From the sequence record SRR33789315_16: a stretch of DNA of 63,069 nucleotides, one strand, 5' to 3'. Position 1 is the stretch's first letter. Every line of letters begins with the position of its first letter. The position numbers and the translations under genes are program-made. The notes under the pieces were generated by a model. That model was given only the letters and a program-made list of their open reading frames with translations, did not search any database and had not been told where the DNA came from. This document shows, piece after piece, positions 1,164-63,069 of the stretch.

Positions 1164-3569
1164 CTAATCAGCGTGTTTGAACTCTGGCAATCTCATCACT
1201 AAAAAGATCGGAATTAATAAAAAAGCTGATCCAACATAGTATGGAATGGCCGAGCCATACTTCCAATAAACAAGCGAAGCTGCAATTGGGCCAATCACTC
1301 GCGCAAGTGCACCAAGGCTTCTAAAGATACCAACACTTCTACCCTGCTCATTAGCAGGACTATATAGTGAAACCAAAGCCGTTAAACATGGAATTGCCAT
1401 GGCCGAACCAATCGCCAAAAAGAATAGGCCGAAATAAATCATAAAAGAGCTTTGGGCAAAGCCAATTAAGATAAGACCAGGGATAACGCTAATTAATCCC
1501 ATGAGGGCCATTTTTCTCTCACCAATCTGAGAAGCCTTCCTTCTAACAAGCCCACCTTGAACCATTGCGAGGACAAAGCCGATAAAGATAAACATATAAG
1601 CGTTATCCATCGGCGAATAACCAAGACGTTCAAACGCTAGGAATGTAAGAGTGAATTCCATACCAGAAAAAGCACTAAGGAAAAGAAAATGACTAAAATT
1701 TGTGAGGTTTACACCTGGATATGGCAAAGGAGAAAATAGCTTTAATGGATTAAAACTTCTTTGAAGATGTGATTCTCCACTTTTTCCTTTTGGAAGTGTT
1801 TCTTTAAACCTAAAGAGTAATGACCAGAAATTAAGAAATGATAATACAAAAGCAATCGCTGCAGGAACAGAGAACGGGTTTACTCCATAGGCCGCTAATT
1901 CAGGCCAAGTCTCAAGCAGATTCCATTGTGCAGAAATTCCTCCAAGTGCTGGTCCAAAAATAAAACCAAGAGCAAATGCGATTCCAACAAACGCCATGCC
2001 TTTTGAGCGATTTTTAGATTCTGTCACATCGGCGACAACAGCTGTTGCCGTTGAGATATTACCGCTCATGAAGCCGCCAATAAATCGAGCAAGAATCAGT
2101 ACCGTAAAGCTTCCGGCAAAGAACCACAGGCCATAACTTAGAGTTAAGCATGCAACCGAAATAAGAAGAACTGGCTTTCTACCAATACGATCCGAAATCC
2201 CACCCCAAATAGGAGCGGCGATAAACTGAAGTAATGAGTAAAGTGCACCGAGCGCACCACCAAATAAAACAATAGATGAAACATCAGCTCCACCTGCTTG
2301 TGTGAGACTTGCAATACTACCAAAGATTGCTTTTAAAAAGACATTATCAGCATCAGTTTCAAGGTAGTGTTTTGCCAACTGTGGAAACAAAGGAAAGATG
2401 ATTGAAAAACCAATCAAGTCTAAAAATAGCGTTAAGAACACGATCTTAATACTTGATTTAGCTTTTGGACTTAAAGGAGGAGATTTCATTTTTTGTTCGG
2501 CCATTGGTTCATACCTTGAAGATTCAAAATTAATATATTGAGACTGAATGGCTTTTGAATCACCATTGGCGTGGGCATCGATCAGTGTTGCAAAATCTTT
2601 GCACCACTGATCATCATCATTAAGACACGGAATATGCTGGATATCACCACCAGACTCATGGGCCTGCTCTTTAAGTTCAACCCCAATTTCATCAACAGTT
2701 TCGAGGCAATCAGCAACAAAGGCTGGACAATAAACAGCAATATTTTTTTGACCTAGTTCAATCAATTCATCAACACGATCATCTGTATAAGGAGTTAACC
2801 ACTCTTCAGAACCAAACCTTGATTGAAAAGCATACTCGACATCAACAGGGCTGATCTCTTTGAGGCGTTCTTTAATTAGACAAAATGTTTCATAGCAATG
2901 CTGATAATAAACATCACCGTTATAAATGACCCAACGTTTAGGAATTCCGTGAAAAGACATGATGAGCTTATCAACTTTCTTTTCGGCATTTAATTTCTTC
3001 AGATGTTGGTCCACTAACCTAGCTGAGTTATCAATAAAAGCGTGAGAGCGGTGAAAGTCGGTTAGAAACTCAAAAGGAGGGATCTTAGTTCTCTTTTCAA
3101 GAACTTTGGCAAAGCCATCCATTCCACTAGCAACGGTCGAACCTGAATATTGTGGGAACATGGCAATGGCCAAAAGTCTGGTGGCAGCTTGTTCAGGCTT
3201 ATCCTCTAGATCTTTTTCCCAACTATCCCAAACATCACTAACTCGAGGACTAGACAATAAGAAAGCATGATTGAGTTCTACAGTTTGAGGATCTGGAAGC
3301 GCTTTGCTGACTTTATTGGCAAAAGCTTCTGTAATTGTAATGAGGGGAAAACTTTTTCCGTCCCAAATTCTTGAATAGAGTTTTGCGGAACGCTTTGGCC
3401 TAAATGGTAAAATGAAAAGATGAAGAATGATCTTCCAAAGCCATGGAGTGACATCAACGACACGAGGATCCCCCAAAAACTCCTTTAAATAAGCTCTAAC
3501 ATCGGAGACTTTTGGACTTTTTGGTGAGCCAAGTTGTACTACAACCGCTTTCGTTTTACGTCGATTCAA
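1164..3569 (-). CDS. hemH: Ferrochelatase fused in frame to a C-terminal MFS (TetA/DHA1-like) transporter
   Basis: Residues ~1-335 carry ferrochelatase motifs (LGSP, FLGDPRV, FPQYS, SFHGIP, FQSRFG, WLTPYTD, ADCLETVDEI, CLNDD). Residues ~356-801 are a hydrophobic MFS with LDLIGFSIIFP and motif A (GISDRIGRKP). Confidence 0.9.
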   Translation of the reverse strand: MNRRKTKAVVVQLGSPKSPKVSDVRAYLKEFLGDPRVVDVTPWLWKIILHLFILPFRPKRSAKLYSRIWDGKSFPLITITEAFANKVSKALPDPQTVELNHAFLLSSPRVSDVWDSWEKDLEDKPEQAATRLLAIAMFPQYSGSTVASGMDGFAKVLEKRTKIPPFEFLTDFHRSHAFIDNSARLVDQHLKKLNAEKKVDKLIMSFHGIPKRWVIYNGDVYYQHCYETFCLIKERLKEISPVDVEYAFQSRFGSEEWLTPYTDDRVDELIELGQKNIAVYCPAFVADCLETVDEIGVELKEQAHESGGDIQHIPCLNDDDQWCKDFATLIDAHANGDSKAIQSQYINFESSRYEPMAEQKMKSPPLSPKAKSSIKIVFLTLFLDLIGFSIIFPLFPQLAKHYLETDADNVFLKAIFGSIASLTQAGGADVSSIVLFGGALGALYSLLQFIAAPIWGGISDRIGRKPVLLISVACLTLSYGLWFFAGSFTVLILARFIGGFMSGNISTATAVVADVTESKNRSKGMAFVGIAFALGFIFGPALGGISAQWNLLETWPELAAYGVNPFSVPAAIAFVLSFLNFWSLLFRFKETLPKGKSGESHLQRSFNPLKLFSPLPYPGVNLTNFSHFLFLSAFSGMEFTLTFLAFERLGYSPMDNAYMFIFIGFVLAMVQGGLVRRKASQIGERKMALMGLISVIPGLILIGFAQSSFMIYFGLFFLAIGSAMAIPCLTALVSLYSPANEQGRSVGIFRSLGALARVIGPIAASLVYWKYGSAIPYYVGSAFLLIPIFLVMRLPEFKHAD

Positions 3570-3644
3570 TGCACTACCCAGCTTGTCAAAATTAGGTTAT
3601 TATTGAGCTAAACTAGCAAAATCTCATATATAAGGCAAAAGACT

Positions 3645-4166
3645 GTGGCCAAAAAAAGATCGACAACTTCAGGACGAGGCAAAGAATTAAAAGGGTTTAA
3701 GCTTGGAGAAGCCGTTACTGACTATCCAACCAATTATGCCCCTGAAGTCCTAGAGGCTTTTGACAATAAAAACCCTGGCAAAGTGGCTTGGACAACTTTC
3801 GTCTGTACCGAGTTTACTAGTCTTTGTCCAAAAACGGCTCAGCCGGATTTTGCCCGAATATTCATCAATTATATCGCTGACAAAAAGATGGTCGAATCTA
3901 AATCACTAAAGCTCTACCTCTTTAGTTTTAGAAATCATGGTGACTTCCATGAAGATTGTGTGCAAAAAATCTGTGATGATTTAACAAAATTAATCAAGCC
4001 AAAGTATTTAGAAGTCGTTGGTGAGTTTACGCCAAGAGGTGGGATTGCGATCTATCCATTTGCGAGCTCTAGTTCTAAAGAAAAGGTTTATATCAAGCTT
4101 AGAGAAGAAAGACTTCTAGGCTACGCACCCGGTAAGTACAGCATGCCGCTGTCACGTGTTTACTAA
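3645..4166 (+). CDS. queF: preQ1 synthase (7-cyano-7-deazaguanine reductase), type I
   Basis: EFTSLCPKTAQPDFA, VESKSLKLY, FHEDC and PRGGI motifs. Confidence 0.95.
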   Translation: MAKKRSTTSGRGKELKGFKLGEAVTDYPTNYAPEVLEAFDNKNPGKVAWTTFVCTEFTSLCPKTAQPDFARIFINYIADKKMVESKSLKLYLFSFRNHGDFHEDCVQKICDDLTKLIKPKYLEVVGEFTPRGGIAIYPFASSSSKEKVYIKLREERLLGYAPGKYSMPLSRVY

Positions 4167-4178
4167 AAGGACTTCGTT

Positions 4179-4364
4179 ATGTTTGGACTTGGTACAACTG
4201 AAGCTTTAATTGTTTTGGCCATCATTGTTCTTATGTTTGGTGGACGCAAGCTTCCAGAGCTTGGCAGATCAATGGGCAAGGCTATTACAAATTTCAAGCA
4301 AGGAATGAAAGACGAAGACAATAAAAAAGATAAGAAAGTCGATCCACCGGAAGATAATTCTTAA
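4179..4364 (+). CDS. tatA: Twin-arginine translocase subunit TatA/E
   Basis: Short TM helix, FGGRKLPELGRSMGKAI amphipathic helix, charged tail. Confidence 0.93.
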   Translation: MFGLGTTEALIVLAIIVLMFGGRKLPELGRSMGKAITNFKQGMKDEDNKKDKKVDPPEDNS

Positions 4365-4780
4365 TCGCAAGATCTAAGTAAACTTAATCCATCAAAAATA
4401 AGACCGACTCTCCAAAATTGTGGAATGATCATTTTATAAAGCTGTCTTCTATCTTTTTTGCTTAAAGAACAAAATCCTGCCTGCTCATAGCAATTACTAT
4501 GAGATTCGAAGGCAAACTCTTTAAGCTCCTCACAATCATTAAAACCAGTATTTTTTATTTCGTTGATAAGGCATTCACGAGTATTAGCTAACCATTGCTG
4601 GCCATCATCAGAAAATGAATTCTTGTTATTGATAAACTTTAGACAGTATCTATACCCAAAATTAATTGGATAACCTTTACTTTGACATTGATACTCGCCT
4701 TCAAGCTGTTGATAAAAATCACATTCGCTAGCCTGAACACTCAAACTCGTGAATAGGAAAAATAATAACAAGTATCTCAT
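4361..4780 (-). CDS. Small secreted Cys-rich protein (stanniocalcin-like Cys pattern)
   Basis: Signal peptide (..SVQA), 8 Cys, pattern CDFY..C..GY...GY.YC.KF..GQ.W...R.CL..C..L...AF.SH..CY...GFC. Confidence 0.7.
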   Translation of the reverse strand: MRYLLLFFLFTSLSVQASECDFYQQLEGEYQCQSKGYPINFGYRYCLKFINNKNSFSDDGQQWLANTRECLINEIKNTGFNDCEELKEFAFESHSNCYEQAGFCSLSKKDRRQLYKMIIPQFWRVGLIFDGLSLLRSCD

Positions 4781-11765: not shown

Positions 11766-14201
11766 ATGATAAAATTTAAAGGCAGCTTTACTATGAAAAC
11801 AAATCAACCATTTAAGAAATTCATTCATACGAAAGTTCTTATCGCATTGGGATTGTCTTCACTATCTACTTTTACATTTTCTCAAACTTGTTCAGAACTA
11901 AGTACCAGCCTTAACTCAATTCAAGCAAAACAATATAATCTGATGAGCGGCGAAGGCGATGATGCCAAAAGGTTAATTGAATTAGAAAAAGATCATGATG
12001 CTACCCTATCGCAATTAACAATTATTCACGAACTCCATAAGCTGAATGATGAATATTTTAAAACATTAAAACGTGATGCCATACCAATTAGTGAAAATGG
12101 TTTTGATGATGTACTTTCAATCATCAATAGCGTTTCAAGTGATGACCTTACAGATAAAGAAACTCAAAGAAAAATTAAACATCTTTCAGTTCTTGAAAAT
12201 ATGGCAACAATGGACTCGCTCTTATCTGAAATGCGAAACGCTGATAATGTAAATGAAAGTTTATTTAGAGTTAGCTCTATTCCAGAAGGAAGCTCTTTTA
12301 CTCAAGAGGTCGAGGGAAAAGTTAATCAAATAATCGCTTCATGCGTCGCAAGTACTAGCACGAATAGAAGTAATCTTTGTAAGTCTTTAACCCAAGAAAA
12401 AAGTGATTCAGCCAGAGAGCTCGTCAAAGGCTTTATTACGGCATTTACTGCAGACCAAACTAGCCGTGCAACTCCTGAGTCTAGAAAACAAACTCTAGAC
12501 AACTATCATGCCATCCTTCGAAATGGTCTTGATCCTAGCTCTGACTTATTTCAACTGTTTCAAGATGCTAAGGCCGTTGCTGCAACTTCAGAGTCATCAC
12601 AAATAATTGCTCGTGTTAGAAGTTATGCTAATAGCAGCACTGTTAGTGGTGGTGTTACTACAGTCACTAAAAATGAAAATATTAAAAACCTCGAATACGC
12701 TTATTGCTGTACGCTTTCAAATATTCGAGCAAATCAAAGGGATGCATGTAAGGAAGGCTCTGGCTTCCAAAATGATAGAGTTAGTTGTGATAGTTATACA
12801 AACAAAGTCCCAAATAGTTTAAAAGATGTTCTCGAAACATTTGTAAATTACGAGAGCAGAGTTTATTCAAGCCTCAATTATGATTTTGATCGCGTTAATC
12901 CAGAGAGCTTAATGGATAAAGAAAGTCTACGAGCTCAAAAAACAATATTTAACCAAAATAATGCTCTTTCAACATATGTTCAAACAGTGACAGGTGGACT
13001 GAGTTTTCTTGGTACAGGTAATGCCTCTTCAAACATCTCTAATTCATTTAGTGAATTAACTGAAGGCTCAACAAAAATTGACAGTACTGTTAAAAGTTTA
13101 ATGGCTCGCCTAGGTGTTATTTTTAGAAGAGGAAAAATAAATGCTCCAGATGGAAGAAACTTTCCAACAGGCAAAGCTTTTCTGTCATCAGGCATTGAAG
13201 AGCAAGATCGCCCAAGAATCACATCAGAGGTCAATAAACGTATTTGTGATATTGCAAAGAAAATTGATCAAAGTAAGCAATGTGACAATACAGAATATGT
13301 AACAGTAGGAGCGAATGGCTTTGAACTTAAAGATAATGACGAATTACTCTCTGTTTTTGGCAATGGTGCCGAACTTCACCGTATTTGGGAAGATGAACAA
13401 AAACTTTATCAAGATAAACTGGCTGACATTAAAGCAAAAATTAATGCTCTAAAAGCTAAACCTGAGTATGCCCACTTAGAACAAATTAAAAACTTTATGG
13501 TTCTAGATTTTCAAGCAAGATGTAATTATAAAACAGAGGATAATGATATTAAAATTTCAGGCTGTAATGCTGATTTAGATGGTAATCCGGCTATTGATTA
13601 CTTAGTTGCAGATGTTAATGGTATCTCAAATGCATTACTTGCGGAATATGACCCTAACAAAATTCAAAACTACAATTTAGCTAATGCTTCACTTCAACAG
13701 CGCAGGACGATTCTTGGTAATATGAACGGCGCCTGTCAGGGCCTAACAAGATTGAATACAGAGAAACCTAATCAAGGCTTCTCAAGTCCAGCAATAACTG
13801 CTGTATGCGGTCGTGTAGTCTCTATGAATACTGAAGCGTCGATAACTACGGCTTATGAGCGTGGCCAACGAATTGAGAGTCGTGGCTACAGACTTACAGG
13901 CGATGGTAACTACAAAAAGAAGAAATCTACCGGCAGTCAAATTGGTCTTGGAGTTCTTCAAGGTTTAGGCAACAGCGCTGGAACACTTGTAGGAACATTT
14001 GCTCAGGGTAGAATTTTAAATGATAGTCTTCCCTACCAAGAACGTTATATTTATAATCAAATGGATCAGCAATATGCCTATAATTGGTATCAACAAAATG
14101 CTCAACCAAACTACTTCTACCCAGGGATGAATAATCCATATTACTTGCCTCAATTTGGTGGGTACTCAGGTGGCTATAATTTTAATGCCACTGGATTGTA
14201 G
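11766..14201 (+). CDS. Large secreted hypothetical protein with helical/coiled-coil segments and Gly/Tyr/Asn/Gln-rich C-terminus
   Basis: 811-aa ORF with signal-peptide-like N-terminus, paired Cys and a low-complexity tail; no family recognised. Confidence 0.85.
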   Translation: MIKFKGSFTMKTNQPFKKFIHTKVLIALGLSSLSTFTFSQTCSELSTSLNSIQAKQYNLMSGEGDDAKRLIELEKDHDATLSQLTIIHELHKLNDEYFKTLKRDAIPISENGFDDVLSIINSVSSDDLTDKETQRKIKHLSVLENMATMDSLLSEMRNADNVNESLFRVSSIPEGSSFTQEVEGKVNQIIASCVASTSTNRSNLCKSLTQEKSDSARELVKGFITAFTADQTSRATPESRKQTLDNYHAILRNGLDPSSDLFQLFQDAKAVAATSESSQIIARVRSYANSSTVSGGVTTVTKNENIKNLEYAYCCTLSNIRANQRDACKEGSGFQNDRVSCDSYTNKVPNSLKDVLETFVNYESRVYSSLNYDFDRVNPESLMDKESLRAQKTIFNQNNALSTYVQTVTGGLSFLGTGNASSNISNSFSELTEGSTKIDSTVKSLMARLGVIFRRGKINAPDGRNFPTGKAFLSSGIEEQDRPRITSEVNKRICDIAKKIDQSKQCDNTEYVTVGANGFELKDNDELLSVFGNGAELHRIWEDEQKLYQDKLADIKAKINALKAKPEYAHLEQIKNFMVLDFQARCNYKTEDNDIKISGCNADLDGNPAIDYLVADVNGISNALLAEYDPNKIQNYNLANASLQQRRTILGNMNGACQGLTRLNTEKPNQGFSSPAITAVCGRVVSMNTEASITTAYERGQRIESRGYRLTGDGNYKKKKSTGSQIGLGVLQGLGNSAGTLVGTFAQGRILNDSLPYQERYIYNQMDQQYAYNWYQQNAQPNYFYPGMNNPYYLPQFGGYSGGYNFNATGL

Positions 14202-14272: not shown

Positions 14273-14367
14273 GCCTTAATTCTAGTGACTTAGAGGCCCT
14301 TCCATTAATCCCCCTATTCCCGACTGTCCTACTCCGGAAAACTAGTACAATAGAGTGGTGGAAGTTT

Positions 14368-14394
14368 TAAGAACAAATCCAGAAATTCCGAAGA
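14368..14394 (+). promoter_or_regulatory. Candidate sigma28-like promoter
   Basis: TAAG-N15-TCCGAAGA just upstream of SD GAGGTG and ATG 14418. Confidence 0.4.
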
Positions 14395-14417
14395 GTTACC
14401 GTGAGGTGGTATCACGG

Positions 14418-17400
14418 ATGAATAGCTTATCCTCGAGTTTAATAATTCTATTGGCATTATTTTTTGCGGCATGTGTCCCGCAGTCGCCGAAGTCTACTCG
14501 AAAATCATCTAAGGCAGCTTCAACTGGTGCAACTGCAACTCCTACACCAAGCGCTCCAACTTTCTCAGGCAATGCCTATTGGTACAACGGACAAGTCGTT
14601 AACGGTGTCTTAGAAATCCCTGACACTTTTTCATCGGTTGTCTACATCCGCGGGACGTCAGTTAATAATTTTCTAGCGCAATCTTCAGCTCAAATGAGTG
14701 CAGTTTATTGTACTGTTATCAGTTTTAATAACACTGGTTCAAAAGATCAGCTTAGAGTTAGAGCTGTTCCACTTACATTTAATAATTTTCAAACGGGTCA
14801 ACTCGAAAGACTTTTTAGAATTGATATGAACTTAGCATCAAGTGAATGTGACGGTGCGGTTGGAAATTTAGGTCAACTTGTTTCAAGAGCACCATTTTAT
14901 CTAGGAAATACTTCTTATCTGGCCGTAACTAACGGAACTACAGGTAAAGGTATTTATTATAATGCATCACCTGGGGCAACATTCAGTTCAAGATCTTTCA
15001 ACGATGTTAAAGATTCAAACGGAAACTCTTTACTTTCTAATACAGTTAATAAAATTTATGCTCATGGTACTACTGTCGTTGTTGGGACTCAGTCTGGACT
15101 TGGTCTTTCTTTAAATAGCGCTTCGACTTTCAGCGCACCAACGACTTTTAAAAATAAAAATATCTCTGCCATTGGTGGAATCAATTCTAAATGGGCAGTA
15201 GCGGCTGATAACCAGCTTTATATCACTGGTGATAACGGCGTCACTTTTAACAGTTTTTCATATACAGCTGGTACACCTATCATCAACAAAATTGTTGGTA
15301 TCCAAAGTATTTCTGATTACATTTTTATTTCTACAAGCTCAGGTGTCTTTTATACTGTGAATGATGGTGCATCATTCACTCAACTAACAGCTTCGACATC
15401 AAACGGTATTAGTGTAGGTGGCGGTAAACTTTTTGTTGCCACAAACTCTGGTCTTTTAAAATATGATATTTCAGCTGGTGGTGCTCCAGTATCACAAGGA
15501 AGCTTAACCACCGGAAACGGTCTTGGTAGTAATATCATTAACGATGTCGCCGTCAACTCAGCAAGTATTTATATCGCAACTTCTGCCGGACTATCTGTTG
15601 GACTTATTAATGCCGTCGCCTTTACTAATACTGTTCTTAGCGGCGGTGAACCAAAAGAAGTCGCTGCTGCTCTAGATAATGCTGTCGTCACCATGTCTGG
15701 TGGTGGCACTGTTTACTATGATGGTGCCTTAGTTATTACCCCAAGTTTAACCACAAAAACATTTGAGATAGATGATGTCTGTCCTACATGCTCAAGTCTT
15801 ACTTCGACTAACGTAGCTCTTTATCAAATTTCTGCTGGCGCTATTGATGACACAACAAGAGTTAGCAGCCTTGACTCTGCCATCGGTGCCTTAGGCCTTA
15901 AGATTTCAGGTAATGGAAGCTCCGGTGGCTCAGGTGGAACATGTACGAATAATGATTGTCAGGCCCAAGGCTTTGACTGCTGTTTAGAAAACCAGTGTGT
16001 TATTGATTCGACAGAAAGACCTGGAGCAGCGGCATCACTTGATCCATTATATTATTCACAAGCACAAAATGATGTCGCTCTAAACGCTCAACTTTTTGTG
16101 AATTACCCAGATGTCTATTATGTCTGTACTCAAGCTCCTCCAGTCACAACAACACCTACTCCGCAACCTGATGCAGTAGCAACAGCGGCGGCTAGACTTC
16201 AAGAAGAGTATGCACAATATCTTTGTCTTCAAGGTGCAGCGGAAGATCCAGTTAATTTTGCGAATTGTATAGATGGTGACGGTGACTCTGATAATGATGA
16301 AGACGATTATAATCTCATCAGACTAAGAGTTTGGGATCGTTGTGGTTGTGAAGCTGAACCATTAGAACAACCATACTGTCCTGATTATGGTCTTACGGCA
16401 ACATTTGATAGTAATGGAAATGTTCAAACAGTATCTTGTTTAATTCCACCTCCAGATGTTCAACCTACTCCATTTCAAAGTTTAAGTATTAATATACCAG
16501 CTAAATCTGTACCTCATCGATTCTTTAGAAGTGTCGATGGGAAAAAAGTCGATGATATCTCAACGATCTCTAATATCACGCCAGAGATTGTTCCAGAGGG
16601 AACGCCATTTGCTTACCTAGATGAATCAAGCAAGACCGCTCCTTTAGACTCTCCATATAATATGAATGATATTTTAGGCCAGATGTCAGTTAGCCTTACA
16701 CGCGCTCTTCCAGCAAAAGTTATTAAACTAGAATTTGGTGCTGATTACATTGTTTCGGCCACAAGTGGATTCTATACACCATGTCCACAATGTGCTCGAG
16801 ATGCTTGGTATGATTCATTTACCGCGCACCCTTCTTCACGCGATGGGCTTGGTGTTCAAGCAATCGGATACACAACAAGAAGGGACATACTTTCGAATAA
16901 CTCAAGTTTTGGTAACTACGAAGATACTATTTTTGGTCGTGCCTGTTGGGTACCACCTACGATGATTGCCTTTACCCACAAGCCTGAAGCATCAGTCATG
17001 GCACAAAGAGAAGCAAGACTTCGTGCTCAAGCTGCACTTTGGGTCAATGGTTATCAACGTGATTGGTATGGCTTTAATAAAGGGGCACTAATTGGATCTT
17101 TTGATGGCGTGAAGTGGTTTGCCATTGGCAATGGTCGAAAAGTGACTTCTACAAGCGAAAGTCTTTTCCTTGCTATTAATGCACCATTTGGAGACCTTGC
17201 TGATACAACTGATATAGCAGTTAATATTGTTGCCGATTTAGGAAACAACAGTGTTGCCAATGTTGATTATGACCCTACCGTTCTTCTAAATGACTCTAGA
17301 CAAAATAGAGCTGGCAGCTGCCAACGCTTCCATATTTGTGAAAAAGACATTGATTGCGTTTCAAGACTAGGCTGGGAATACACCTGTGCCAATGTAGACG

Positions 17401-20375
17401 TCCAAGATCTGTCATGGCCAAAATTTGATGCTTCTGGAGATGAAGTTATTGGTGAAAATACAAATTTTGGTTTAGAAGATATTGTTTTTGGCAATGCTGG
17501 CCTTCAAGGTGGAGCTAAACGATGTGTCTATAGAGGTGCTGGTGCTCCATGTGCAAAAGACTGGAGTGTTTTAACTGACGATGTAAAAGAAAACTATAGA
17601 TGTGCACCAAATTTCTTTTGTGCTGATCTTGATGCGAATATCTTTAACGACAGAGTTATCCGTGAACCCGCTGCTCTACAAACTTACCAATATGGTAAAG
17701 AATCAGATGTCTTAGGTCGTCCAGTAAATTATGTTTTAGGCTTTAGTAATCTTGATGGCTCTATCAAAGATAATCTTGAATATAATGCAAGTAAAAATGC
17801 TTCGAAAAATTTGACTGCGGCCAATATGGGTATATGTCGTCCAGGTAAGGCCATCGCCGATGATAATCTTATCAATCAACATAGTATTGAAGATAACCAA
17901 GCCAGAACAGACTTTATCAACCAAATCTCTTCATGTCCGTCTGATCTAAGTACAGTTGCAAGAGTTCGATCTTGCCCTATCTTTAATGTCGTTGCGGATG
18001 ACCCAGAATACGGGAACTTTATCTATGAAGCTTCTGGAACGGCAAGTGCCACTGGCAGAAATACTCAAAATATGTGTGGCGCTGAATGGAAAGATGCTGC
18101 TGCTGACAGTGTATTCAAAGATATTGAAGCTGAATCACTAATAACATTAGGCTCACTCTTCGCTCCATCAGTAGCAATGGATGCATGTTTAAGAAAAGCT
18201 GGTTCAATATGTCATACAGATTTAGATTGTGGACCTAATCGACTCCACGCCGAGCAAGCTATCTTCTTAGATCAAGCTTCATTTAATGGAAGTACGGCAG
18301 AATATCAATACTGGACAGAGTCTCTGGTTTGTCGTCAAGGTGCAAATGCTCCTTCTGTCTTTGATCCAACTTACGAAGACTATGACATGTCTTTAAATGC
18401 TTGTTGCCGAGAAATTGGTAGCGGATTTTCTATGTATACCAATATCGCTCAAGCTCAAATCGATGAAAATCTTGATAACCCACAAGAATTAAACATTTTA
18501 ACAAGCGTATTCCCTAATGGAAAAACACCGGATGCGTCTAAGCCTTATTCTCGTTATTCAATTCTTGCAGATGCGGTAACAAACCCGACGGCGATTGCAC
18601 TCAATGATCCTAAACCTGTTTATCCAAAAAACTTATCTGCTTATGGTGGATCATACGATAATCCAGCCTTTCAGTGGAAAGCTTTCAACGATACTGGGAA
18701 TAAAACATGTTGTGGTGGTTCATGGATCCGTAAATTTAGTGACGGTAGTCATGATTGGACGAATACAAATCGTTTAAATATGAATACTTCAAACTTTAGT
18801 TGTCTTAACTATGAAAGTAATATGCATATCTCCAAACCAACTAACGTTTTGACTTCAAACTATAATAAAGACTTATCAAAGCTTTGTTTGAACCCTGCGG
18901 AAGATGGTTGTATTGAAAAAGGCATCAAGCTTAATGCTTCAAATGACAGTATTGTTCCTCCTTCAAATATTTCCACAACAACTGGTACGATTTCAACGAT
19001 GATTGATGACAGCAATATCCAGACGACTAATTCACAAGCTTATTATCAGCCTGCTGTCTTTAGAAATGCTTCAAGTTTATCCACAGATTTTGAATTTAAC
19101 TTAATTCAAAGTCCATTTAAACCAAGAACAATGATGATCCTACCGATCTATATTGGTAGCTACTCAAATATCAATAGCGTCAGACTCATTTTTGATGGTG
19201 CTGATATGGACAACCCTGTTACTATCACAAACGGTGCGTTTTTTGTCGATCGAACTGGTCAGCCTGAATGTACAAGCTTTCAAGCAATGGAAACGGCCGC
19301 AGCTTATGTTTCAGGAGTAACTCCGGCCAGTAACACTTTTGAAGCTGGACGTTGGTGTGTTAATAACTTAACTGCATCAGATGGACAGTCTTATACAACA
19401 ATAATTGTAATCGCTAATCCTTATAGAACTTTTAGTGATGAGTTTTGGGATTATGCAGGTGTTGAAATCGACTTTGATGTCTATGCAGCAAGTGCAGGCG
19501 CTCACCCATCTAACGCTGCTTTAAACACTACTGCAACAACAAAAGACATTGGTATTGGGATGTCATCAGGAAATGCCAATTATTATGAAACAAAGCTAGG
19601 TCGTTTAGAACTTCTTGGTATTCCACAAATTTTCTATGAACCACTCTACTGTAACTCAGCAAAAGACGTTTTAGTCCCTGGTATCTTTGATGATGCAATT
19701 ACAAATCGAAATCAATTTGAGTTGAACTCAATAACATATCAAAACTATACTCCGCTAAGTGGCTCTGCGCGAAGAATTGAAGGACTGTATGATCCTACAA
19801 ATCCAGCCTATGTATCTGATGTGTCAAAAACCGGTGGCGTAGCAAGAGTTGCTTTTAAAGATAAGGTTAAACTACCTGATATTTTCTCAGGCCATGAATT
19901 TACCTGTTGTCGAGGAATTGGTAATACAACAGAATCGGCAGCTCGTTGTTGTAGTAATTTTGCCGATACAAATGATGATGGTGATTTAGTTTGTCTCATT
20001 CCTAGCGGAACTGACCTTAATGTCTACTTCAATAAGTTTGTATCTTCTGAAGGTATGGGAGAATCTCTACCTGGTGGAGGTCTTCTAGAAAAAGACTTTA
20101 TTCCTGAAACGGGCGAGCCAAAACTTACCAGCGAAGTGACTTCGAAAATCGAAACACTAGGTATAGCTTTCTGTCAGGGCAATGCGATTAGAAATGGCGC
20201 AGCGCTAGGTAGTTTCTATCCACAGCCAAACAGTGGCTCATTCAATGGTGATCCAGAAGCAGGTAGAACCTATAGCTTCATTGATAGTCCACTTGATTAC
20301 GACCCAGACCGCGACACTGGAACAATTCTCTTTAACCAAGGTTATCGTTGGGGACATCACGTTTACTGCCAGTAA
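14418..20375 (+). CDS. Giant Cys-rich lipoprotein with beta-propeller-like repeats
   Basis: Start reassigned to ATG 14418 (SD GAGGTG). Lipobox LFFAAC, Ser/Thr/Pro linker, repeated (I/V)xxT.SGL / xDxG.TF blades, then many Cys clusters (CC and CxxDxDC). Confidence 0.88.
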   Translation: MNSLSSSLIILLALFFAACVPQSPKSTRKSSKAASTGATATPTPSAPTFSGNAYWYNGQVVNGVLEIPDTFSSVVYIRGTSVNNFLAQSSAQMSAVYCTVISFNNTGSKDQLRVRAVPLTFNNFQTGQLERLFRIDMNLASSECDGAVGNLGQLVSRAPFYLGNTSYLAVTNGTTGKGIYYNASPGATFSSRSFNDVKDSNGNSLLSNTVNKIYAHGTTVVVGTQSGLGLSLNSASTFSAPTTFKNKNISAIGGINSKWAVAADNQLYITGDNGVTFNSFSYTAGTPIINKIVGIQSISDYIFISTSSGVFYTVNDGASFTQLTASTSNGISVGGGKLFVATNSGLLKYDISAGGAPVSQGSLTTGNGLGSNIINDVAVNSASIYIATSAGLSVGLINAVAFTNTVLSGGEPKEVAAALDNAVVTMSGGGTVYYDGALVITPSLTTKTFEIDDVCPTCSSLTSTNVALYQISAGAIDDTTRVSSLDSAIGALGLKISGNGSSGGSGGTCTNNDCQAQGFDCCLENQCVIDSTERPGAAASLDPLYYSQAQNDVALNAQLFVNYPDVYYVCTQAPPVTTTPTPQPDAVATAAARLQEEYAQYLCLQGAAEDPVNFANCIDGDGDSDNDEDDYNLIRLRVWDRCGCEAEPLEQPYCPDYGLTATFDSNGNVQTVSCLIPPPDVQPTPFQSLSINIPAKSVPHRFFRSVDGKKVDDISTISNITPEIVPEGTPFAYLDESSKTAPLDSPYNMNDILGQMSVSLTRALPAKVIKLEFGADYIVSATSGFYTPCPQCARDAWYDSFTAHPSSRDGLGVQAIGYTTRRDILSNNSSFGNYEDTIFGRACWVPPTMIAFTHKPEASVMAQREARLRAQAALWVNGYQRDWYGFNKGALIGSFDGVKWFAIGNGRKVTSTSESLFLAINAPFGDLADTTDIAVNIVADLGNNSVANVDYDPTVLLNDSRQNRAGSCQRFHICEKDIDCVSRLGWEYTCANVDVQDLSWPKFDASGDEVIGENTNFGLEDIVFGNAGLQGGAKRCVYRGAGAPCAKDWSVLTDDVKENYRCAPNFFCADLDANIFNDRVIREPAALQTYQYGKESDVLGRPVNYVLGFSNLDGSIKDNLEYNASKNASKNLTAANMGICRPGKAIADDNLINQHSIEDNQARTDFINQISSCPSDLSTVARVRSCPIFNVVADDPEYGNFIYEASGTASATGRNTQNMCGAEWKDAAADSVFKDIEAESLITLGSLFAPSVAMDACLRKAGSICHTDLDCGPNRLHAEQAIFLDQASFNGSTAEYQYWTESLVCRQGANAPSVFDPTYEDYDMSLNACCREIGSGFSMYTNIAQAQIDENLDNPQELNILTSVFPNGKTPDASKPYSRYSILADAVTNPTAIALNDPKPVYPKNLSAYGGSYDNPAFQWKAFNDTGNKTCCGGSWIRKFSDGSHDWTNTNRLNMNTSNFSCLNYESNMHISKPTNVLTSNYNKDLSKLCLNPAEDGCIEKGIKLNASNDSIVPPSNISTTTGTISTMIDDSNIQTTNSQAYYQPAVFRNASSLSTDFEFNLIQSPFKPRTMMILPIYIGSYSNINSVRLIFDGADMDNPVTITNGAFFVDRTGQPECTSFQAMETAAAYVSGVTPASNTFEAGRWCVNNLTASDGQSYTTIIVIANPYRTFSDEFWDYAGVEIDFDVYAASAGAHPSNAALNTTATTKDIGIGMSSGNANYYETKLGRLELLGIPQIFYEPLYCNSAKDVLVPGIFDDAITNRNQFELNSITYQNYTPLSGSARRIEGLYDPTNPAYVSDVSKTGGVARVAFKDKVKLPDIFSGHEFTCCRGIGNTTESAARCCSNFADTNDDGDLVCLIPSGTDLNVYFNKFVSSEGMGESLPGGGLLEKDFIPETGEPKLTSEVTSKIETLGIAFCQGNAIRNGAALGSFYPQPNSGSFNGDPEAGRTYSFIDSPLDYDPDRDTGTILFNQGYRWGHHVYCQ

Positions 20376-23293: not shown

Positions 23294-25621
23294 TTAAGAG
23301 CAAGAAGTCGACTCTCCACAGTTTTCGCACTTATAACAGGTTCCAGCAGCAACCAGAGAATAATGCCCACATTTAGAGCATTTATGTTGTTGTTTTTCAA
23401 TAATGCTCAATGGCTGAGACAGTTTACATCCATCACGATAAAGTGAAATAGATTTCACACCTAGTACATGAGCTTGCTTATATATAAAACTCACATCCTC
23501 AACTGTCGCATTTTTTGGTAAATTTATTGTCTTACTAATTCCACCCGAAACAAACGGTGTGCAAGCTGCCACCATCTTTAAATGGCCTAATGGAGAAATA
23601 CTATTTGAACCTAGAGCCGTCTCAAAAATTGGTAGGTGCTCTTTTTTTAATATTTTGGAAGTTAATATATTTCCTGACTCTAAAACAGAATCTTTTATCT
23701 GCGCTACTTCTAAATCGCTATAGCCAAGACTCTCAAGCGCCTTTAAAAAAATACTATTAATCATCAATGTACTTTTACCACCAACAAGCTTCTTATTTTT
23801 AACCAGTGCATACTCAGGCTCTATTCCTGTTGTTTCACAATCCATCAATAAGCCAATGGTTCCAGTTGGTGCTATCACGGTGACTTGAGCATTTCTTAAC
23901 CCGTGTTTTTTTGCCAGTTCACCAACACGCTCCCATGTTCTAATACAAGCTTGATAAACGGGGAGAAAAGCTTCAGGAAGATGATCTTTGTGAATTGGTT
24001 GAAAAGTTGCCTGCCCTTGAGATATTTTCTTTCCTTTTGTTAAGTCAAAATGATCTTCAAGAACCTTTAGATGAGATTTCTTATTCTTACTATACCCTTT
24101 ATAGGCCCCTAGTTTTTCGGCCAAATGTGCAGACTCTTCATAGGCATTCGCCGTGATAAATGAAGTTAATGTAGCAGCGACGGCCCTTGCTTCATCTGAA
24201 TCATAGGGCAAACCAAAGTACATTAAAAGTGAGCCAAGATTGGCCATTCCCAAGCCTAATGTTCTGTAATGATGAGATCTTTCGGCAATTTTTCTCGACG
24301 GGTACTGTGCCATATCGACAGTAATATCAAGAATAGTCGTATAAAGTTTAATCGTGTGAGTTAATTTATCTAAAATGATCTCATTTGTTTTTTGATCAAC
24401 AAACTTTAATAGATTGAGAGAGGCTAGATTACATCCCGTATCATCCAGGAAAAAGTATTCTGAACAAGGATTGGATGCTAAAATTTCACCATCACTTTTA
24501 CACGTATGAAAATAATTAATATTGTCAGAATACTGCACCCCAGGGTCTGCACATTCCCAGGCACTTTGACAAAGATCATCCCAAATTTTTTGCGATGAAA
24601 CTAAAGACACACGACTTTTATCAAGTCGACTAATCAGTTTCCAGTCTTTCTTTTTTTCCAAAGAATCAAAAAATTTATTCGAGATACGTACAGAATTATT
24701 TGAATTTTGTCCTGAAACACTGGCGTAGCCTTCTGAGTTGAAATCGCCATCAAAGACCTTAAACTTTATAGAAGACAATCTGGGATCATTTATTTTCGAT
24801 AGCATTTCAGAACCAGCGATAAGTGCTGCGACTTTACGCTCTTCATGTAACTTCCACTGAATAAATTCGATTATATCAGGATGATCAATATCGAGAATAA
24901 CCATTTTCGCCGCTCTTCTAGTGACTCCACCTGAGCGAACGGCCGCGGCACTGGCATCGCCAACTTTTAAAAATCCCATTAAACCGCTGGCATACCCTCC
25001 ACCAGGTAAAGGCTCGTTAACGGCAGGGATATTTGAAAAATTAGTTCCCGTGCCTGAACCTTGCTTAAATAATCTAGCTTCCTTTGACCATAGATCTAGT
25101 AATCCATCTTCACGTACAAGATCACTTTTAACAGATTGTATGAAGCAAGCATGGGCCTGTGGGTGCTCATAAGCATTTTGACTTGGTTGAGGGACGCCTT
25201 CGCTATCAATATACCAATGACCTAGTGCCTCACCTTCAATGCCGTAAGAATGAAATAAACCGGTGTTAAACCACTGAGGTGAATTAGGCGCGGCTATCTG
25301 GTGAATTAACGTATAGATAATTTCGTCTTCAAAAAGACGTGACTCTTCATCATCAAAATAGCCAAGTTCCCAACCCCAAAAAGACCAGGCTTTGGCCATA
25401 CGAAGACAAACATCTTGAACATCGTCTTCTCTTTCTGTCTCATTTTTAAGTTTTAGATATTTTCGAGCTAGAATCTCACCAGCTAGGACTGACCAAGACT
25501 TAGGAACATTAATTTCAATAGGCTTCGTTTGCTCAAGGTCATAATCAAGAGCAACACTTCTTTTCTCAAACTCTACTAAAGCAGTTGGTTTTTCTAAGCC
25601 TTTCGTCCAAATTTTTTTCAC
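23294..25621 (-). CDS. nrdJ: Class II (adenosylcobalamin-dependent) ribonucleotide reductase
   Basis: PNSPQWFNTG, HACFI, RRAAKMV, SGQNSNNS, SNPCSEY (radical Cys), CNLASLNL, APTGTIG, GISKTIN, C-terminal CxxC..CxxC. Confidence 0.9.
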   Translation of the reverse strand: MKKIWTKGLEKPTALVEFEKRSVALDYDLEQTKPIEINVPKSWSVLAGEILARKYLKLKNETEREDDVQDVCLRMAKAWSFWGWELGYFDDEESRLFEDEIIYTLIHQIAAPNSPQWFNTGLFHSYGIEGEALGHWYIDSEGVPQPSQNAYEHPQAHACFIQSVKSDLVREDGLLDLWSKEARLFKQGSGTGTNFSNIPAVNEPLPGGGYASGLMGFLKVGDASAAAVRSGGVTRRAAKMVILDIDHPDIIEFIQWKLHEERKVAALIAGSEMLSKINDPRLSSIKFKVFDGDFNSEGYASVSGQNSNNSVRISNKFFDSLEKKKDWKLISRLDKSRVSLVSSQKIWDDLCQSAWECADPGVQYSDNINYFHTCKSDGEILASNPCSEYFFLDDTGCNLASLNLLKFVDQKTNEIILDKLTHTIKLYTTILDITVDMAQYPSRKIAERSHHYRTLGLGMANLGSLLMYFGLPYDSDEARAVAATLTSFITANAYEESAHLAEKLGAYKGYSKNKKSHLKVLEDHFDLTKGKKISQGQATFQPIHKDHLPEAFLPVYQACIRTWERVGELAKKHGLRNAQVTVIAPTGTIGLLMDCETTGIEPEYALVKNKKLVGGKSTLMINSIFLKALESLGYSDLEVAQIKDSVLESGNILTSKILKKEHLPIFETALGSNSISPLGHLKMVAACTPFVSGGISKTINLPKNATVEDVSFIYKQAHVLGVKSISLYRDGCKLSQPLSIIEKQQHKCSKCGHYSLVAAGTCYKCENCGESTSCS

Positions 25622-60237: not shown

Positions 60238-61161
60238 ATGATTGAAAAGCTAAGACTACTCCATTTACCCGCAGACATCCCTGTCAGCAAGACACTCGAT
60301 AGTGTTTTTGTCTTAGCAACATGTCAAAGAACATTACTTTTAGGAATTGATGAGTCCAAAACCATCGCAGAAACGAACCAACATATACTAGATGATTTAA
60401 GTGGTGATGCAGCTTATAGTTTTTTACTTGAAACTATCTGTGGACTAAAAAGCCAAGTCCTTGGTGAATACGAAGTTGTGGCGCAGTTTAAACAAGCCTA
60501 CTCAGAATACGTGCAAAATGATGAGCGCAATCCACAAATTATGCGGATTTTAGAAAAACTTTTCAAAGACGCCAAAACAGTTCGCTCTTCTCATCTTCTA
60601 GAAATTGGCTCTCATACATACGGTGGTCTTGCCAGAAAACTTTTAATTAAGCATTGCCCTGAACAAAAAGGTCGCGTGCTCATTTTAGGTTCAGGAAAAC
60701 TTGCTGAAGAATCACTCAAACTTTTAACTAGAAAGTTTGATGTCTACCTTTCAGCAAGAAATTTTGAACGAGTTGCAACTCTTCATGATCAACATGGGAT
60801 AAGACCAGTCGAGTGGTATTCCCCTCAACTTTATAAAGAATTCTCGCTTATCATCAATACCATCGGATCCCACGATACCATTTATAAAGGTGAATTTTTT
60901 GAAAGTTGGGCCAACTGTCATGATTATGGCAAGCGTGCCTTTATTGATCTTGGCTCACCTAGCGCCATTAACACAAAACTAGAAAACCATGATGGCATTT
61001 ACCGCCTCGATGATGTTTTCGCTTATCAAGAAGAACTTGATGAGCAAAAGAAAATTAAACTTGCAGATGCCAAAGCTGCGATCAAGGACTTAGTCGATCG
61101 CCGTACAGAGAGCTTTTCAACCAGCTCAATTTTAAAGACCAAGGATATGGAATTAGTCTAA
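60238..61161 (+). CDS. hemA: Glutamyl-tRNA reductase (short form)
   Basis: TCQR catalytic Cys, GLKSQVLGE, GSGKLA NADPH-binding motif, DLG.P; first gene of the hem cluster. Confidence 0.8.
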   Translation: MIEKLRLLHLPADIPVSKTLDSVFVLATCQRTLLLGIDESKTIAETNQHILDDLSGDAAYSFLLETICGLKSQVLGEYEVVAQFKQAYSEYVQNDERNPQIMRILEKLFKDAKTVRSSHLLEIGSHTYGGLARKLLIKHCPEQKGRVLILGSGKLAEESLKLLTRKFDVYLSARNFERVATLHDQHGIRPVEWYSPQLYKEFSLIINTIGSHDTIYKGEFFESWANCHDYGKRAFIDLGSPSAINTKLENHDGIYRLDDVFAYQEELDEQKKIKLADAKAAIKDLVDRRTESFSTSSILKTKDMELV

Positions 61162-62672
61162 TGAATAAAACATGGAAGATTGGAACCCGAGGCAGTTTAC
61201 TCGCGTTAACTCAATGTCAGCAAACAAGAGAATTATTAGAATCACGTAGTGGCGAGAAATTTGAACTTGTCGTTATTAAGACTCAAGGTGATCAACAAAC
61301 TGATAAACCTCTTTGGCAACTTGAAGGTAAAGACTTTTTTACAAAAGAACTTGATGAAGCTCTTTTAAAAAATGAAGTTGATCTCGTTGTTCACTCATAC
61401 AAAGATCTTGGCAGCGAAAGACCTGAAGGAATTAAACTAGCCGCCGTAGTTGAGCGTCAATACGGACATGACATCTTACTCATTCCAAGGAAAAATATTG
61501 AAGCCTTAAAAGCTGGGACCATTAAAGAGCTTATCGTTGGCACCAGCTCTCCAAGAAGAATTACAAATTTAGAAAATCAACTCTCAAGTTTTGTTCCTTC
61601 GAATCCAAAGATTTCAACAAAAATGCTTCGAGGAAACGTTAATACTCGTGTGCAAAAGCTTCAAGATGGAGACTATCACGCCATTGTCTTGGCCATGCCA
61701 GGACTTGAAAGATTGGCCCAAGGCAATGAGTCTAAGATTGAATTAAAAAGACTAATGCAGGATTTGGATTTCATGATCATGCCAGCATCAAAATTTCCGT
61801 GGGCAGCTTCCCAAGGTGCTTTGGCGATAGAGATGAACAAAGATAATCCTAAAGCTTCAGACATAGAAAAAATATTAAAAACAGTTCACCACGAAGAAAC
61901 TCAAGAAGCAGTAAAAAGAGAAAGAAAGGCCTTTAATCAATACGGAGGAGGATGCCATCTTGCTGTTGGCGTAGCAGTTATCGCCTCTAAGAAATGTTTT
62001 ATACACTCTCACCGTGGAGTTAAAGACGATCAAGTGATTGAAGAACTCTATCTTGAACCGGCTCCAAGCAAAGTTAAAGCAGCCAAAGTTTTTGAAGGCA
62101 TGCCTCATCACGACAAACTTTTAAAGAAATCACCTTTAACAAATATCGAAATAGATCTCAAAGACAAAGATGTCTTTGCAACGTCTTCAAATGTTTTTGA
62201 AGCAATCTCAAAAACAAATCAAATCCGTGGCTTATGGGCAGCTGGAACGAAGACCTGGCAAAAACTAGCCAGCGCAAACCACTGGGTTAATGGTGCTGCG
62301 GATAGTCTTGGAGAAGATCAACTTAAAGAATTTGAAAAGTCTGAGCTACTTAAAATCATCAGAGGAGATGATTTTGATTGGCTTGTACTATCTGCCGAGG
62401 ACGCCACAAGTCATTTGGGCCCAGTAGTTGAAACTTACACACGACAAACTCAACCGATGACAACAGAGTTTAAGCAATCCATTGAGTCTACATCTGACTT
62501 TTTCTGGACGAGCTACCCTCAGTTTCAAACTTACCTAGAACAATTCCCTAGTATTCATGCTAAAAGACATTGGTGTGGCTTAGGTAAAACCTATGATGCT
62601 TTTGTCGCAGCAAAAATAAATGTGATACCTGTAAGTGGAATATTAGAATTTAGAAAAATGACTCAAGTTTAA
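61161..62672 (+). CDS. hemC: Porphobilinogen deaminase with C-terminal HemD-like extension
   Basis: IGTRGSLLALTQ, FTKEL, VHSYKDL, GTSSPRR, RGNVNTR, GGGCH; ~200 extra residues containing FWTS and CGLGKT. Confidence 0.9.
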   Translation: MNKTWKIGTRGSLLALTQCQQTRELLESRSGEKFELVVIKTQGDQQTDKPLWQLEGKDFFTKELDEALLKNEVDLVVHSYKDLGSERPEGIKLAAVVERQYGHDILLIPRKNIEALKAGTIKELIVGTSSPRRITNLENQLSSFVPSNPKISTKMLRGNVNTRVQKLQDGDYHAIVLAMPGLERLAQGNESKIELKRLMQDLDFMIMPASKFPWAASQGALAIEMNKDNPKASDIEKILKTVHHEETQEAVKRERKAFNQYGGGCHLAVGVAVIASKKCFIHSHRGVKDDQVIEELYLEPAPSKVKAAKVFEGMPHHDKLLKKSPLTNIEIDLKDKDVFATSSNVFEAISKTNQIRGLWAAGTKTWQKLASANHWVNGAADSLGEDQLKEFEKSELLKIIRGDDFDWLVLSAEDATSHLGPVVETYTRQTQPMTTEFKQSIESTSDFFWTSYPQFQTYLEQFPSIHAKRHWCGLGKTYDAFVAAKINVIPVSGILEFRKMTQV

Positions 62673-62686
62673 AAAAGGAAATAGTT

Positions 62687-63069
62687 TTGATCGATAACCA
62701 TAGTGAACTCTTTGAACTATCAAAAAAAATAATCCCTGGTGGTGTACACTCACCTGTTAGAGGCTTTAAAGGTCTGCCAATGGCCCCGCGCTTTTTTGAA
62801 AAAGCAGAAGGTGCTTACATTACTGATGTCGCTGGAAAAAACTATATTGATTTTTGTATGAGTTTTGGCCCGTTAATTTTAGGGCATAGAGACCTGGATG
62901 TTGAACGCGAGCTAAAGTTTGCCCTAGAAAAAGGATGGAGTTATGGAGCATGTGAACCATACTCTTTAAAACTCGCTCAATTTCTTGTTGAACGCCTACC
63001 CTTCATCGACCAGATTCGTTTTGTAAATTCTGGCACTGAAGCTGTCATGACAGCTATCCGTTTAGCTCG
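62687..63069 (+). CDS. hemL: Glutamate-1-semialdehyde 2,1-aminomutase (truncated by window end)
   Basis: Manual translation from TTG 62687: ..IPGGVHSPVRGF..YIDFCMSFGPLILGH..RFVNSGTEAVMTAIRLA. Confidence 0.95.
   Translation, partial: MIDNHSELFELSKKIIPGGVHSPVRGFKGLPMAPRFFEKAEGAYITDVAGKNYIDFCMSFGPLILGHRDLDVERELKFALEKGWSYGACEPYSLKLAQFLVERLPFIDQIRFVNSGTEAVMTAIRLA

Follow-up and report, generated by a model that had tools for sequence, protein, structure and literature searches.

A ferrochelatase joined in one frame to an MFSD10/TETRAN-like transporter in predatory bacteria, and its tentative role in the hand-off of tetrapyrroles

Haem is toxic and sticky, and the manner of its exit from ferrochelatase and of its arrival where it is needed is a long-standing open question in bacteria as well as in mitochondria. 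A stretch of 63,069 nucleotides from the sequence record SRR33789315_16, referred to here as the window, raises this question in a particular form, as one of its genes joins a ferrochelatase to a transporter of the major facilitator superfamily (MFS) in a single reading frame of 801 amino acids (aa). Are the two halves one protein, and what could the last enzyme of haem synthesis share with the transporter to which it is attached? The fusion proves to be genuine and ancient, with selection acting on it, and is no assembly artefact. It constitutes a new architecture built from two known families, already deposited in databases under misleading names and, as far as found, apparently undescribed.

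The 801-aa frame that the initial annotation had described is present as a single uninterrupted frame with a TTG start, and it lies on the minus strand, the plus strand being stop-rich over the same interval (Table 1). The junction between the halves is crossed by two contigs, each from an independent metagenome run, one of which (X1) spans 2399-2731 with 8 substitutions and no gaps and the other (X2) 2356-2512, also without gaps. Among the strain differences listed within the gene for independent metagenome contigs, 35 of 39 fall on third codon positions and none is an indel. Owing to this absence of indels and this excess of third-position changes, the DNA is taken as correct and both halves appear to be under purifying selection. 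No stop codon separates the halves, and the enzyme is therefore never made without the transporter. Two findings had been named beforehand as speaking against a fusion, an indel at the junction and genes that stand apart in relatives; neither occurred, the contigs being gap-free and most of the informative relatives fused.

The N-terminal half was compared with profiles, solved structures and an alignment of 83 fused homologues, with identity down to 53%, which also served as input for an AlphaFold2 model (mean predicted local distance difference test, pLDDT, 86.8 and predicted template-modelling score, pTM, 0.70 for the whole model). It covers positions 5-316 of the 317 of the Pfam family PF00762 (E-value 1.6e-84, 284 bits against a cut-off of 27) and scores 222.6 bits against a cut-off of 124.6 with TIGR00109, the NCBIfam equivalog of hemH. 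His207 and Glu290, which we take from the general ferrochelatase literature to be the catalytic residues, are invariant throughout the alignment, and the complete ferrochelatase with its SFHGIP histidine and DCLET glutamate, as initially claimed, is thus borne out. The closest solved relatives are human ferrochelatase chains (E 1e-21, 80 bits), coproporphyrin ferrochelatase (CpfC) chains matching at E 1e-11. The pLDDT over residues 1-340 is mostly 83-98, with dips to 73 and 76, and a Foldseek comparison of the model with the human chains gave template-modelling scores against the target (TMt) of 0.76-0.81 at an E-value of about 1e-13. Profile scores, catalytic residues and fold all place this half in the ferrochelatase family, of which it is a divergent member with just 80 bits to the human enzyme. 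The Pfam scan of the protein (P0001) gave PF00762 and PF07690 alone, and hence no ChdC/HemQ domain joined to the ferrochelatase. In five out of five fused genomes tested, the sole PF00762 match lies inside the long frame, and the fusion is the only ferrochelatase of these five genomes.

The C-terminal half matches Pfam MFS_1 from residue 377 onwards (E 6.3e-43, 147.5 bits against a cut-off of 33.4), and its model displays 12 long helices over residues 368-792, arranged as two six-helix bundles around a central loop (588-617), as found in members of the MFS. Its top solved relative is PDB 6s4m, the "human organic anion transporter MFSD10 (TETRAN)", with an E-value of 4.4e-63, the next family being NorA at 6.9e-13, a gap of 50 orders of magnitude. 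The alignment with 6s4m spans transmembrane helices (TM) 1-6 and TM7-12, including an unusually long TM1-TM2 loop, and the same structure ranks first in Foldseek (TMt 0.82, 31% identity); by sequence E-value, by coverage of both halves and by fold rank, the full-length similarity to MFSD10/TETRAN clearly exceeds that to other MFS families. Three charged residues of the membrane helices, Asp384 (TM1), Arg495 (TM4) and Glu638 (TM7), are invariant in the 83 homologues and identical in the aligned human MFSD10 chain, and motif A is common to both. Motifs A and C are used here in their customary MFS definitions; motif C is typical of exporting H+ antiporters. With His207, Glu290, motif A and motif C invariant in the 83 sequences, both halves look functional. 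The earlier assignment to a "TetA/DHA1 type" was broadly right at the level of DHA1. A Tet(A)/Tet(B)/Tet(C) pump was rejected, NF012174 scoring 157.5 bits against a cut-off of 475, and MFSD10/TETRAN-like is the more precise description; judging from these scores, the transporter half should not be named a tetracycline-resistance protein. PDB matches at E <=0.001 numbered 27 and included no FLVCR chain, FLVCR structures being represented in the PDB, and no ferroportin or siderophore-importer family occurred among the Pfam, NCBIfam and PDB matches of the fusion. No solved chain spanning both domains was found by Foldseek, in which the template-modelling score against the query (TMq) reached at most 0.46.

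Between the two domains, the linker is longer than the ~25 aa first proposed: it extends over about 34 residues (334-367), AlphaFold2 placing the start of TM1 at residue 368. Its length is 34 in 46 of the 83 homologues and ranges from 31 to 39, with a mean column conservation of 0.49 (0.71 in the enzyme and 0.79 in the transporter), and the pLDDT of the successive 10-residue blocks over 331-370 is 93, 95, 89 and 77. The linker is thus predicted to be ordered and constrained in length, and not a loose tether. An in-frame ATG preceded by AAGG does occur at 2504, as the initial annotation had pointed out, and is not conserved: Met356, found in 62 of the 83 homologues, is missing in 21, the next methionine, Met361, is kept in 56, and seven have no methionine anywhere in residues 345-366. 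A conserved internal start was accordingly rejected; the transporter may be made separately from an internal start in some species, which on this alignment would not be a conserved feature. The ancestral gene boundary proposed at this place was about right, as DNA-verified unfused orthologues begin a few residues ahead of TM1. The cytoplasmic side of the transporter can be told from motif A and from a central loop rich in K and R (5 K+R), the outside from an acidic TM1-TM2 loop. Considering motif A, this charge distribution and the standard MFS topology, TM1 should begin in the cytoplasm and the enzyme should be cytoplasmic, held at the membrane surface.

The architecture is widespread among relatives. 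A protein-database search, in which 7999 candidates were scored and 1250 passed E <=0.001, returned at least 120 best matches (those listed) all of 790-825 aa and all with both Pfam families, among them a protein of Halobacteriovorax marinus SJ named just "ferrochelatase" by the sources. Among species-representative genomes, 71 of 77 loci match over the full length, contig ends truncate four (L005, L019, L055 and L070) and two contain the transporter half alone (L017 and L021); the record titles of the 77 loci read Halobacteriovorax, Bacteriovorax, Peredibacter, Bacteriovoracaceae and similar. The class consists of predatory bacteria, and of its 121 sampled genomes 108 have a transporter orthologue (called at E 1e-100 or better), of which 98 are fused, 7 unfused and 3 uninformative fragments (G328, G203 and G313), a separate fragment seen in the phylum search suggesting that G203 is in fact fused. 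The matches lie in stop-to-stop frames of at least 786 aa in 96 of these 108, continuous frames being found on long contigs and on a record titled complete chromosome, and two further fused genomes (G333 and G318) are cut by contig ends. The examination of domain architecture across relatives that had been proposed along with the initial reading thus gave the Ferrochelatase + MFS_1 fusion in 98 of 105 informative genomes, that is in most of the sampled class. In a representative library of 1.84 billion proteins, 10 cluster representatives of 734-829 aa were among the best 150 matches to the transporter half; all nine that were scanned carry Ferrochelatase and MFS_1 and the tenth (P0075) has both on record. 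Longer proteins with a ferrochelatase gave 583 matches, of which the best 120 listed are all the same fusion. Database entries that appear unfused are to be read with care: the 442-aa "hypothetical protein" P0123 matches, at 100% identity, residues 364-805 of an unbroken open reading frame (ORF) of 805 aa (L016, 7962-10379), so that such entries are partly artefacts and counts of standalone members are inflated. An atlas search returned standalone MFS clusters alone, most commonly from Verrucomicrobiota, which is a lead on range and not evidence.

The history of the fusion was approached through a phylum sample of 301 genomes, of which 248 have a ferrochelatase. Among the 150 best listed ferrochelatase matches, beyond which lie 106 further ones, 149 are in frames of 317-438 aa. 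The transporter-half query gave 64 matches at E <=4e-130 and at least 50% identity, followed by a gap down to E 5.5e-64 (38%), and the weaker matches, which lie in frames some 390-520 aa long, begin to align only near query residue 80. On long contigs of sister lineages, hundreds of kb separate hemH from the nearest MFS gene (e.g. G157, G227 and G104), with closer spacing in two sister genomes (4 kb in G164 and 18 kb in G125). Some members of the class lack the orthologue and have a standalone hemH, namely G265 (in a frame of 332 aa, with 40% identity to the fused domain), G298 and G259. These members, together with the spacing in sister lineages, indicate that the fusion originated inside the class, from two genes that lie apart in the sister lineages sampled. 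In a FastTree phylogeny of the transporter domains (192 rows, 4 outgroup rows), about 30 unfused sequences are basal to a clade holding all the fused ones; the tree omits every second sequence of alignment A1, protein-database transporter matches outside 425-499 aa, and library matches beyond P0322 or of other lengths. It implies 24-25 changes between the fused and unfused states, a number inflated by annotation artefacts such as P0123 and P0127, the latter nearly identical to the fused P0018, and the states were for this reason counted solely where they had been checked on DNA.

Seven genomes are truly unfused (G071, G138, G155, G179, G268, G315 and G352). In the four of these seven whose locus was read, the transporter sits at the fusion's own locus, with the divergent queF-like neighbour in L081, L082 and L084 and an ankyrin-repeat gene intervening in L083, L081-L083 belonging to three of the last five genomes named; in L081, the unfused transporter is followed by ffh and dus, the same order as downstream of the fusion in the window. 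From ORF reading alone, L017 and L021 contain an ORF of 452 or 472 aa with a divergent 169-aa ORF in the queF-like position. A fusion-type ferrochelatase elsewhere in the genome is absent in all seven, and nowhere did the fusion-type enzyme turn up without its transporter. The enzyme-coding half was lost at the locus itself. Because the unfused transporter stays at the same locus where the fusion-type enzyme is missing, its job outlives its own enzyme. Two of the seven genomes, G071 and G138, have a different hemH, just 30% identical to the fused type, with a Cys-rich insert after the catalytic histidine (four Cys within ~30 residues); it is clustered with a hemY-like gene (Table 1), about 1.4 kb downstream of hemE. 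The other five are drafts in which no match to ferrochelatase or URO-D was found, and the three of these drafts searched for ALAD (G155, G179 and G268) gave no match either, the controls G001 and G002 scoring E 1e-140. These five genomes, of unreported completeness, possibly belong to haem auxotrophs, and one of them, G268, retains a cytochrome c assembly gene.

The fused genomes have a haem pathway of their own. The window contains hemA, hemC and hemL, and among fused relatives URO-D was found in three out of three (G001, G002 and G004), ALAD in two out of two (G001 and G002) and HemJ in two out of three (G002 and G004), G001 having a weak HemY-like match instead. The organism thus makes its own protoporphyrin and, with the early haem genes that it carries, does not have to depend on porphyrin from prey. 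Within the cluster of the window, the hemA-like ORF is short (307 aa) and the hemC ORF is long (503 aa), its Porphobil_deam match covering residues 6-232 and ~270 C-terminal residues having no Pfam match at E 0.01; a divergent HemD is one possibility for this tail. Five out of five genomes tested (fused G001, G002 and G004, unfused G071 and G268) have one Cytochrom_C_asm gene each, in frames of 505-535 aa, and we assume that this gene codes for a cytochrome c maturation protein of the system II type, which exports haem by itself.

From these elements we propose one bifunctional inner-membrane protein, in which a ferrochelatase on the cytoplasmic face, presumably of the protoporphyrin type, would be connected to TM1 of a proton-coupled transporter of the DHA1 type that resembles MFSD10/TETRAN, the linker between them being short, ordered and fixed in length. 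The enzyme would insert iron into protoporphyrin IX from the cell's own pathway, and the tetrapyrrole, most likely the product haem and otherwise surplus protoporphyrin, would pass straight into the transporter, which, by proton exchange, would carry it away from the cytoplasmic leaflet in the direction of the periplasm; haem would in this way be supplied or detoxified and free cytoplasmic pigment limited. The transporter would also act alone on tetrapyrroles from other sources, for example in clearing a prey-derived excess, and may have been kept after the loss of the enzyme for that reason. A hand-off of haem or protoporphyrin to an MFSD10-like exporter or flippase, for which we infer both direction and substrate, is favoured here tentatively, at something short of an even chance, on account of the kinship with exporters, the invariant antiporter motif, the organic-anion carrier as closest relative, the ordered linker and the long persistence of the fusion; tetrapyrroles are themselves dicarboxylate anions of amphipathic character. 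The initial reading, in which iron insertion was coupled to haem export or to import of prey-derived porphyrin, is supported in part, simple channelling being complicated by the lone transporter and by the organism's own early haem genes. Several observations weigh against the hand-off. The lone transporter of the five genomes in which neither ferrochelatase nor URO-D was found implies a function independent of haem making, which an unrelated substrate fits equally well; an operon precursor was searched for in sister lineages and not found, hemH and the nearest MFS gene not being neighbours on their long contigs, so that the pair has no operon history; the 83-sequence alignment shows, over its transporter half, no invariant histidine that might serve as a ligand of haem iron; and if the Cytochrom_C_asm gene is of the system II type, one obvious task of a separate haem exporter is already performed. 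In a broader form of the proposal, decidedly unlikely in our opinion, the whole MFSD10/TETRAN family, including the human orphan carrier, would be tetrapyrrole translocators, and the fusion would be a haem synthase and exporter or flippase working without release of haem.

That the transporter carries another organic anion or amphipath unrelated to tetrapyrroles, the fusion merely anchoring and co-expressing the enzyme and persisting unsplit for want of selection, is the main alternative, though on balance an unlikely one. It draws on the lone transporter kept at the same locus, in the five genomes without the haem-pathway genes searched as well as in the two with an unrelated hemH, on the abundance of standalone members of the subfamily (96 of 120 listed matches are below 500 aa, some of them annotation artefacts), on the basal branches of the tree, which are all unfused, and on the separation of hemH and the nearest MFS gene in sister lineages. 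A mere anchor, however, needs neither a length-constrained and confidently ordered linker nor a full 12-helix transporter with invariant coupling motifs; standalone bacterial ferrochelatases do without one, as in 149 of the 150 listed matches, and the fusion is held in 98 of 105 informative genomes across a divergence down to 53% identity. Delivery in the opposite direction, in which the cytoplasmic face would receive haem or a porphyrin originating in the periplasm, the outer leaflet or the prey, protoporphyrin being metallated at once and the lone transporter importing haem in auxotrophs, would explain why the five apparent haem auxotrophs keep the transporter (G268, the only one tested, has a cytochrome c assembly gene) and would suit predators with access to prey pigments. 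It also has a precedent in MFS-acyltransferase fusions feeding a cytoplasmic enzyme, the mechanism being that known for LplT-Aas, and one such protein occurs among the relatives (P0411). The invariant motif C and the DHA1/MFSD10 kinship nevertheless point to export from what is known of these families, the fused genomes make their own porphyrin, and auxotrophs salvaging protoporphyrin should keep a ferrochelatase, which all five have lost; inward delivery is accordingly judged improbable. A direct supply of metal to the chelatase, through import of ferrous iron or an iron chelate, is suggested by analogy with the mitochondrial ferrochelatase complex, mitoferrin being thought to bring iron to the mitochondrial enzyme; it is very improbable here, since the nearest relatives are organic-anion and drug antiporters, with no ferroportin or siderophore importer among the matches, and genomes that have lost the enzyme retain the transporter. 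Scarcely credible, finally, is the view that enzyme and transporter do not form a single protein in vivo. The in-frame ATG with its weak AAGG at the boundary, and annotations such as P0123 that list the transporter half alone, could be read as two products made separately, but no stop lies between the halves, Met356 is missing in 21 of the 83 homologues and seven have no methionine in the linker. An artefact of assembly or sequencing is largely refuted at the DNA level by the continuous frame in 96 of 108 genomes of the class and by independent contigs crossing the junction without indels.

Compared with known systems, the fusion combines familiar parts in an unfamiliar way. Its transporter half is closest by sequence and fold to MFSD10/TETRAN, a similarity that does not by itself imply orthology, and differs in that MFSD10 is a standalone eukaryotic protein of ~450 aa without a fused enzyme, whose physiological substrate is not established. 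Drug and organic-anion efflux have been reported for MFSD10. The accessible portions of the MFSD10 papers refer to it as an atypical or orphan carrier. Its enzyme half shares family, fold, catalytic His and Glu and haem-pathway context with standalone HemH/PpfC and with human mitochondrial ferrochelatase, which are peripheral membrane proteins of ~320-440 aa, whereas the C-terminus of the fusion continues into a transporter. The HemH-ChdC (HemQ) fusion of Cutibacterium acnes shows that a ferrochelatase can be joined to a neighbour in the pathway, the partner being the next soluble enzyme of the coproporphyrin pathway and not a membrane transporter. In the available part of a 2021 survey, ferrochelatase lengths range from 270 to 683 aa with this C. 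acnes fusion as an outlier (PMC8529089), and in that of a 2026 review it is the sole ferrochelatase fusion mentioned, neither "MFS" nor "major facilitator" occurring there (PMC13564367). Proteins of the LplT-Aas type resemble the fusion in joining an MFS transporter to a cytoplasmic enzyme acting on the transported amphipath, and differ by a C-terminal enzyme and, by the mechanism generally described, an inward flow. In the representative library, P0411 (797 aa) combines MFS_1 with a C-terminal Acyltransferase and matches from query residue 78 onward with 42% identity. FLVCR, a eukaryotic MFS protein, and the bacterial CydDC, CcsBA and HrtAB perform the type of job proposed here, and none of them is fused to a ferrochelatase; CydDC, CcsBA and HrtAB belong to other protein families. 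A conceptual parallel is offered by the mitochondrial ferrochelatase complex with transporters, as presented in the part of the source available (PMC4545792). No description of a ferrochelatase-MFS fusion was found in the full-text literature, a scope that excludes subscription journals and supplements.

The fusion offers a single polypeptide on which a direct hand-off could be studied by expression, domain-wise mutation, reconstitution and imaging. It comes with a natural "deletion series" as built-in controls, seven sampled genomes having lost the enzyme half in place and five of them apparently haem synthesis too. If the link to tetrapyrroles is true, the function of MFSD10, an orphan carrier in humans, would gain a first lead; if the reading extended to the family holds, the fusion would be the first MFS transporter of haem in bacteria and would act as a Rosetta stone for the role of human MFSD10. 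If the link is false, there is still a caution in an 800-aa membrane protein labelled simply "ferrochelatase" and sometimes split in annotation.

Table 1. Coordinates of the fused gene, its parts and associated features (positions in the window unless a locus is named)
Feature	Position	Strand	Basis or remark
Whole fused gene	1164..3569	minus	801 codons + stop, TTG start; full-length homologues
Ferrochelatase domain, residues 9-333	2571..3545	minus	Pfam PF00762, TIGR00109
His207 codon, in SFHGIP	2949..2951	minus	His in 83/83 fused homologues
Glu290 codon, in DCLET	2700..2702	minus	Glu in 83/83 fused homologues
Linker, residues 334-367	2469..2570	minus	variable sequence, constrained length, predicted ordered
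Internal in-frame ATG (Met356, MAEQK)	2502..2504	minus	weak AAGG 9 nt upstream; Met in 62/83 homologues
MFS transporter domain, residues 368-795, 12 predicted helices, MFSD10/TETRAN-like	1185..2468	minus	Pfam MFS_1, 6s4m, Foldseek
MFS motif A (WGGISDRIGRKP, residues 455-466), TM2-TM3 loop	2172..2207	minus	G456, S459, D460, G463, R464 invariant in 83
MFS motif C, "antiporter motif" (GFIFGPALGG, residues 535-544), TM5	1938..1967	minus	G535, G539, P540, G543, G544 invariant in 83
Divergent intergenic region, 75 bp, common to the queF-like gene	3570..3644		presumed promoter location
queF-like gene, divergent neighbour	3645..4166	plus	Pfam QueF + TIGR03139; synteny marker, no functional link claimed
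PLD-type, cardiolipin-synthase-like gene	2-1117	minus	47 bp downstream of the fusion, same strand
hemA-hemC-hemL cluster, early haem synthesis	60238..63067	plus	GlutR_N/Shikimate_DH, Porphobil_deam, Aminotran_3; ~57 kb from the fusion
hemY-like + hemH cluster of G071/G138	L078 332-2496; L079 1495-3659		genes overlap 4 bp; preceded by a HemN-like ORF tail

In the immediate neighbourhood of the fused gene, a promoter and terminator scan found 7 promoter-like sites where 6.5 were expected. The PLD-type gene may be co-transcribed with the fusion; this downstream neighbour is not conserved in locus L016, and a second PLD-type, cardiolipin-synthase-like gene lies at 48398-49891 (minus). Elsewhere in the window, a 139-aa ORF at 4361-4780 (minus) matches Stanniocalcin, an animal hormone family, with 25.5 bits against a cut-off of 23 (E 1e-5) and has no NCBIfam match, and two adjacent plus-strand ORFs, 11766-14201 (811 aa) and 14355-20375 (2006 aa), match no Pfam family at E <=1e-5. 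The window also encodes a class II (B12-dependent) ribonucleotide reductase (23294-25621, minus), a protein with a Castor/Pollux-type channel domain (34174-36000, plus) and a recombinase of the phage integrase family (40293-41399, plus). An ORF at 44699-45760 (plus) combines FA_desaturase with an N-terminal Lipid_DES (sphingolipid delta-4 desaturase) domain, which hints at sphingolipid metabolism.

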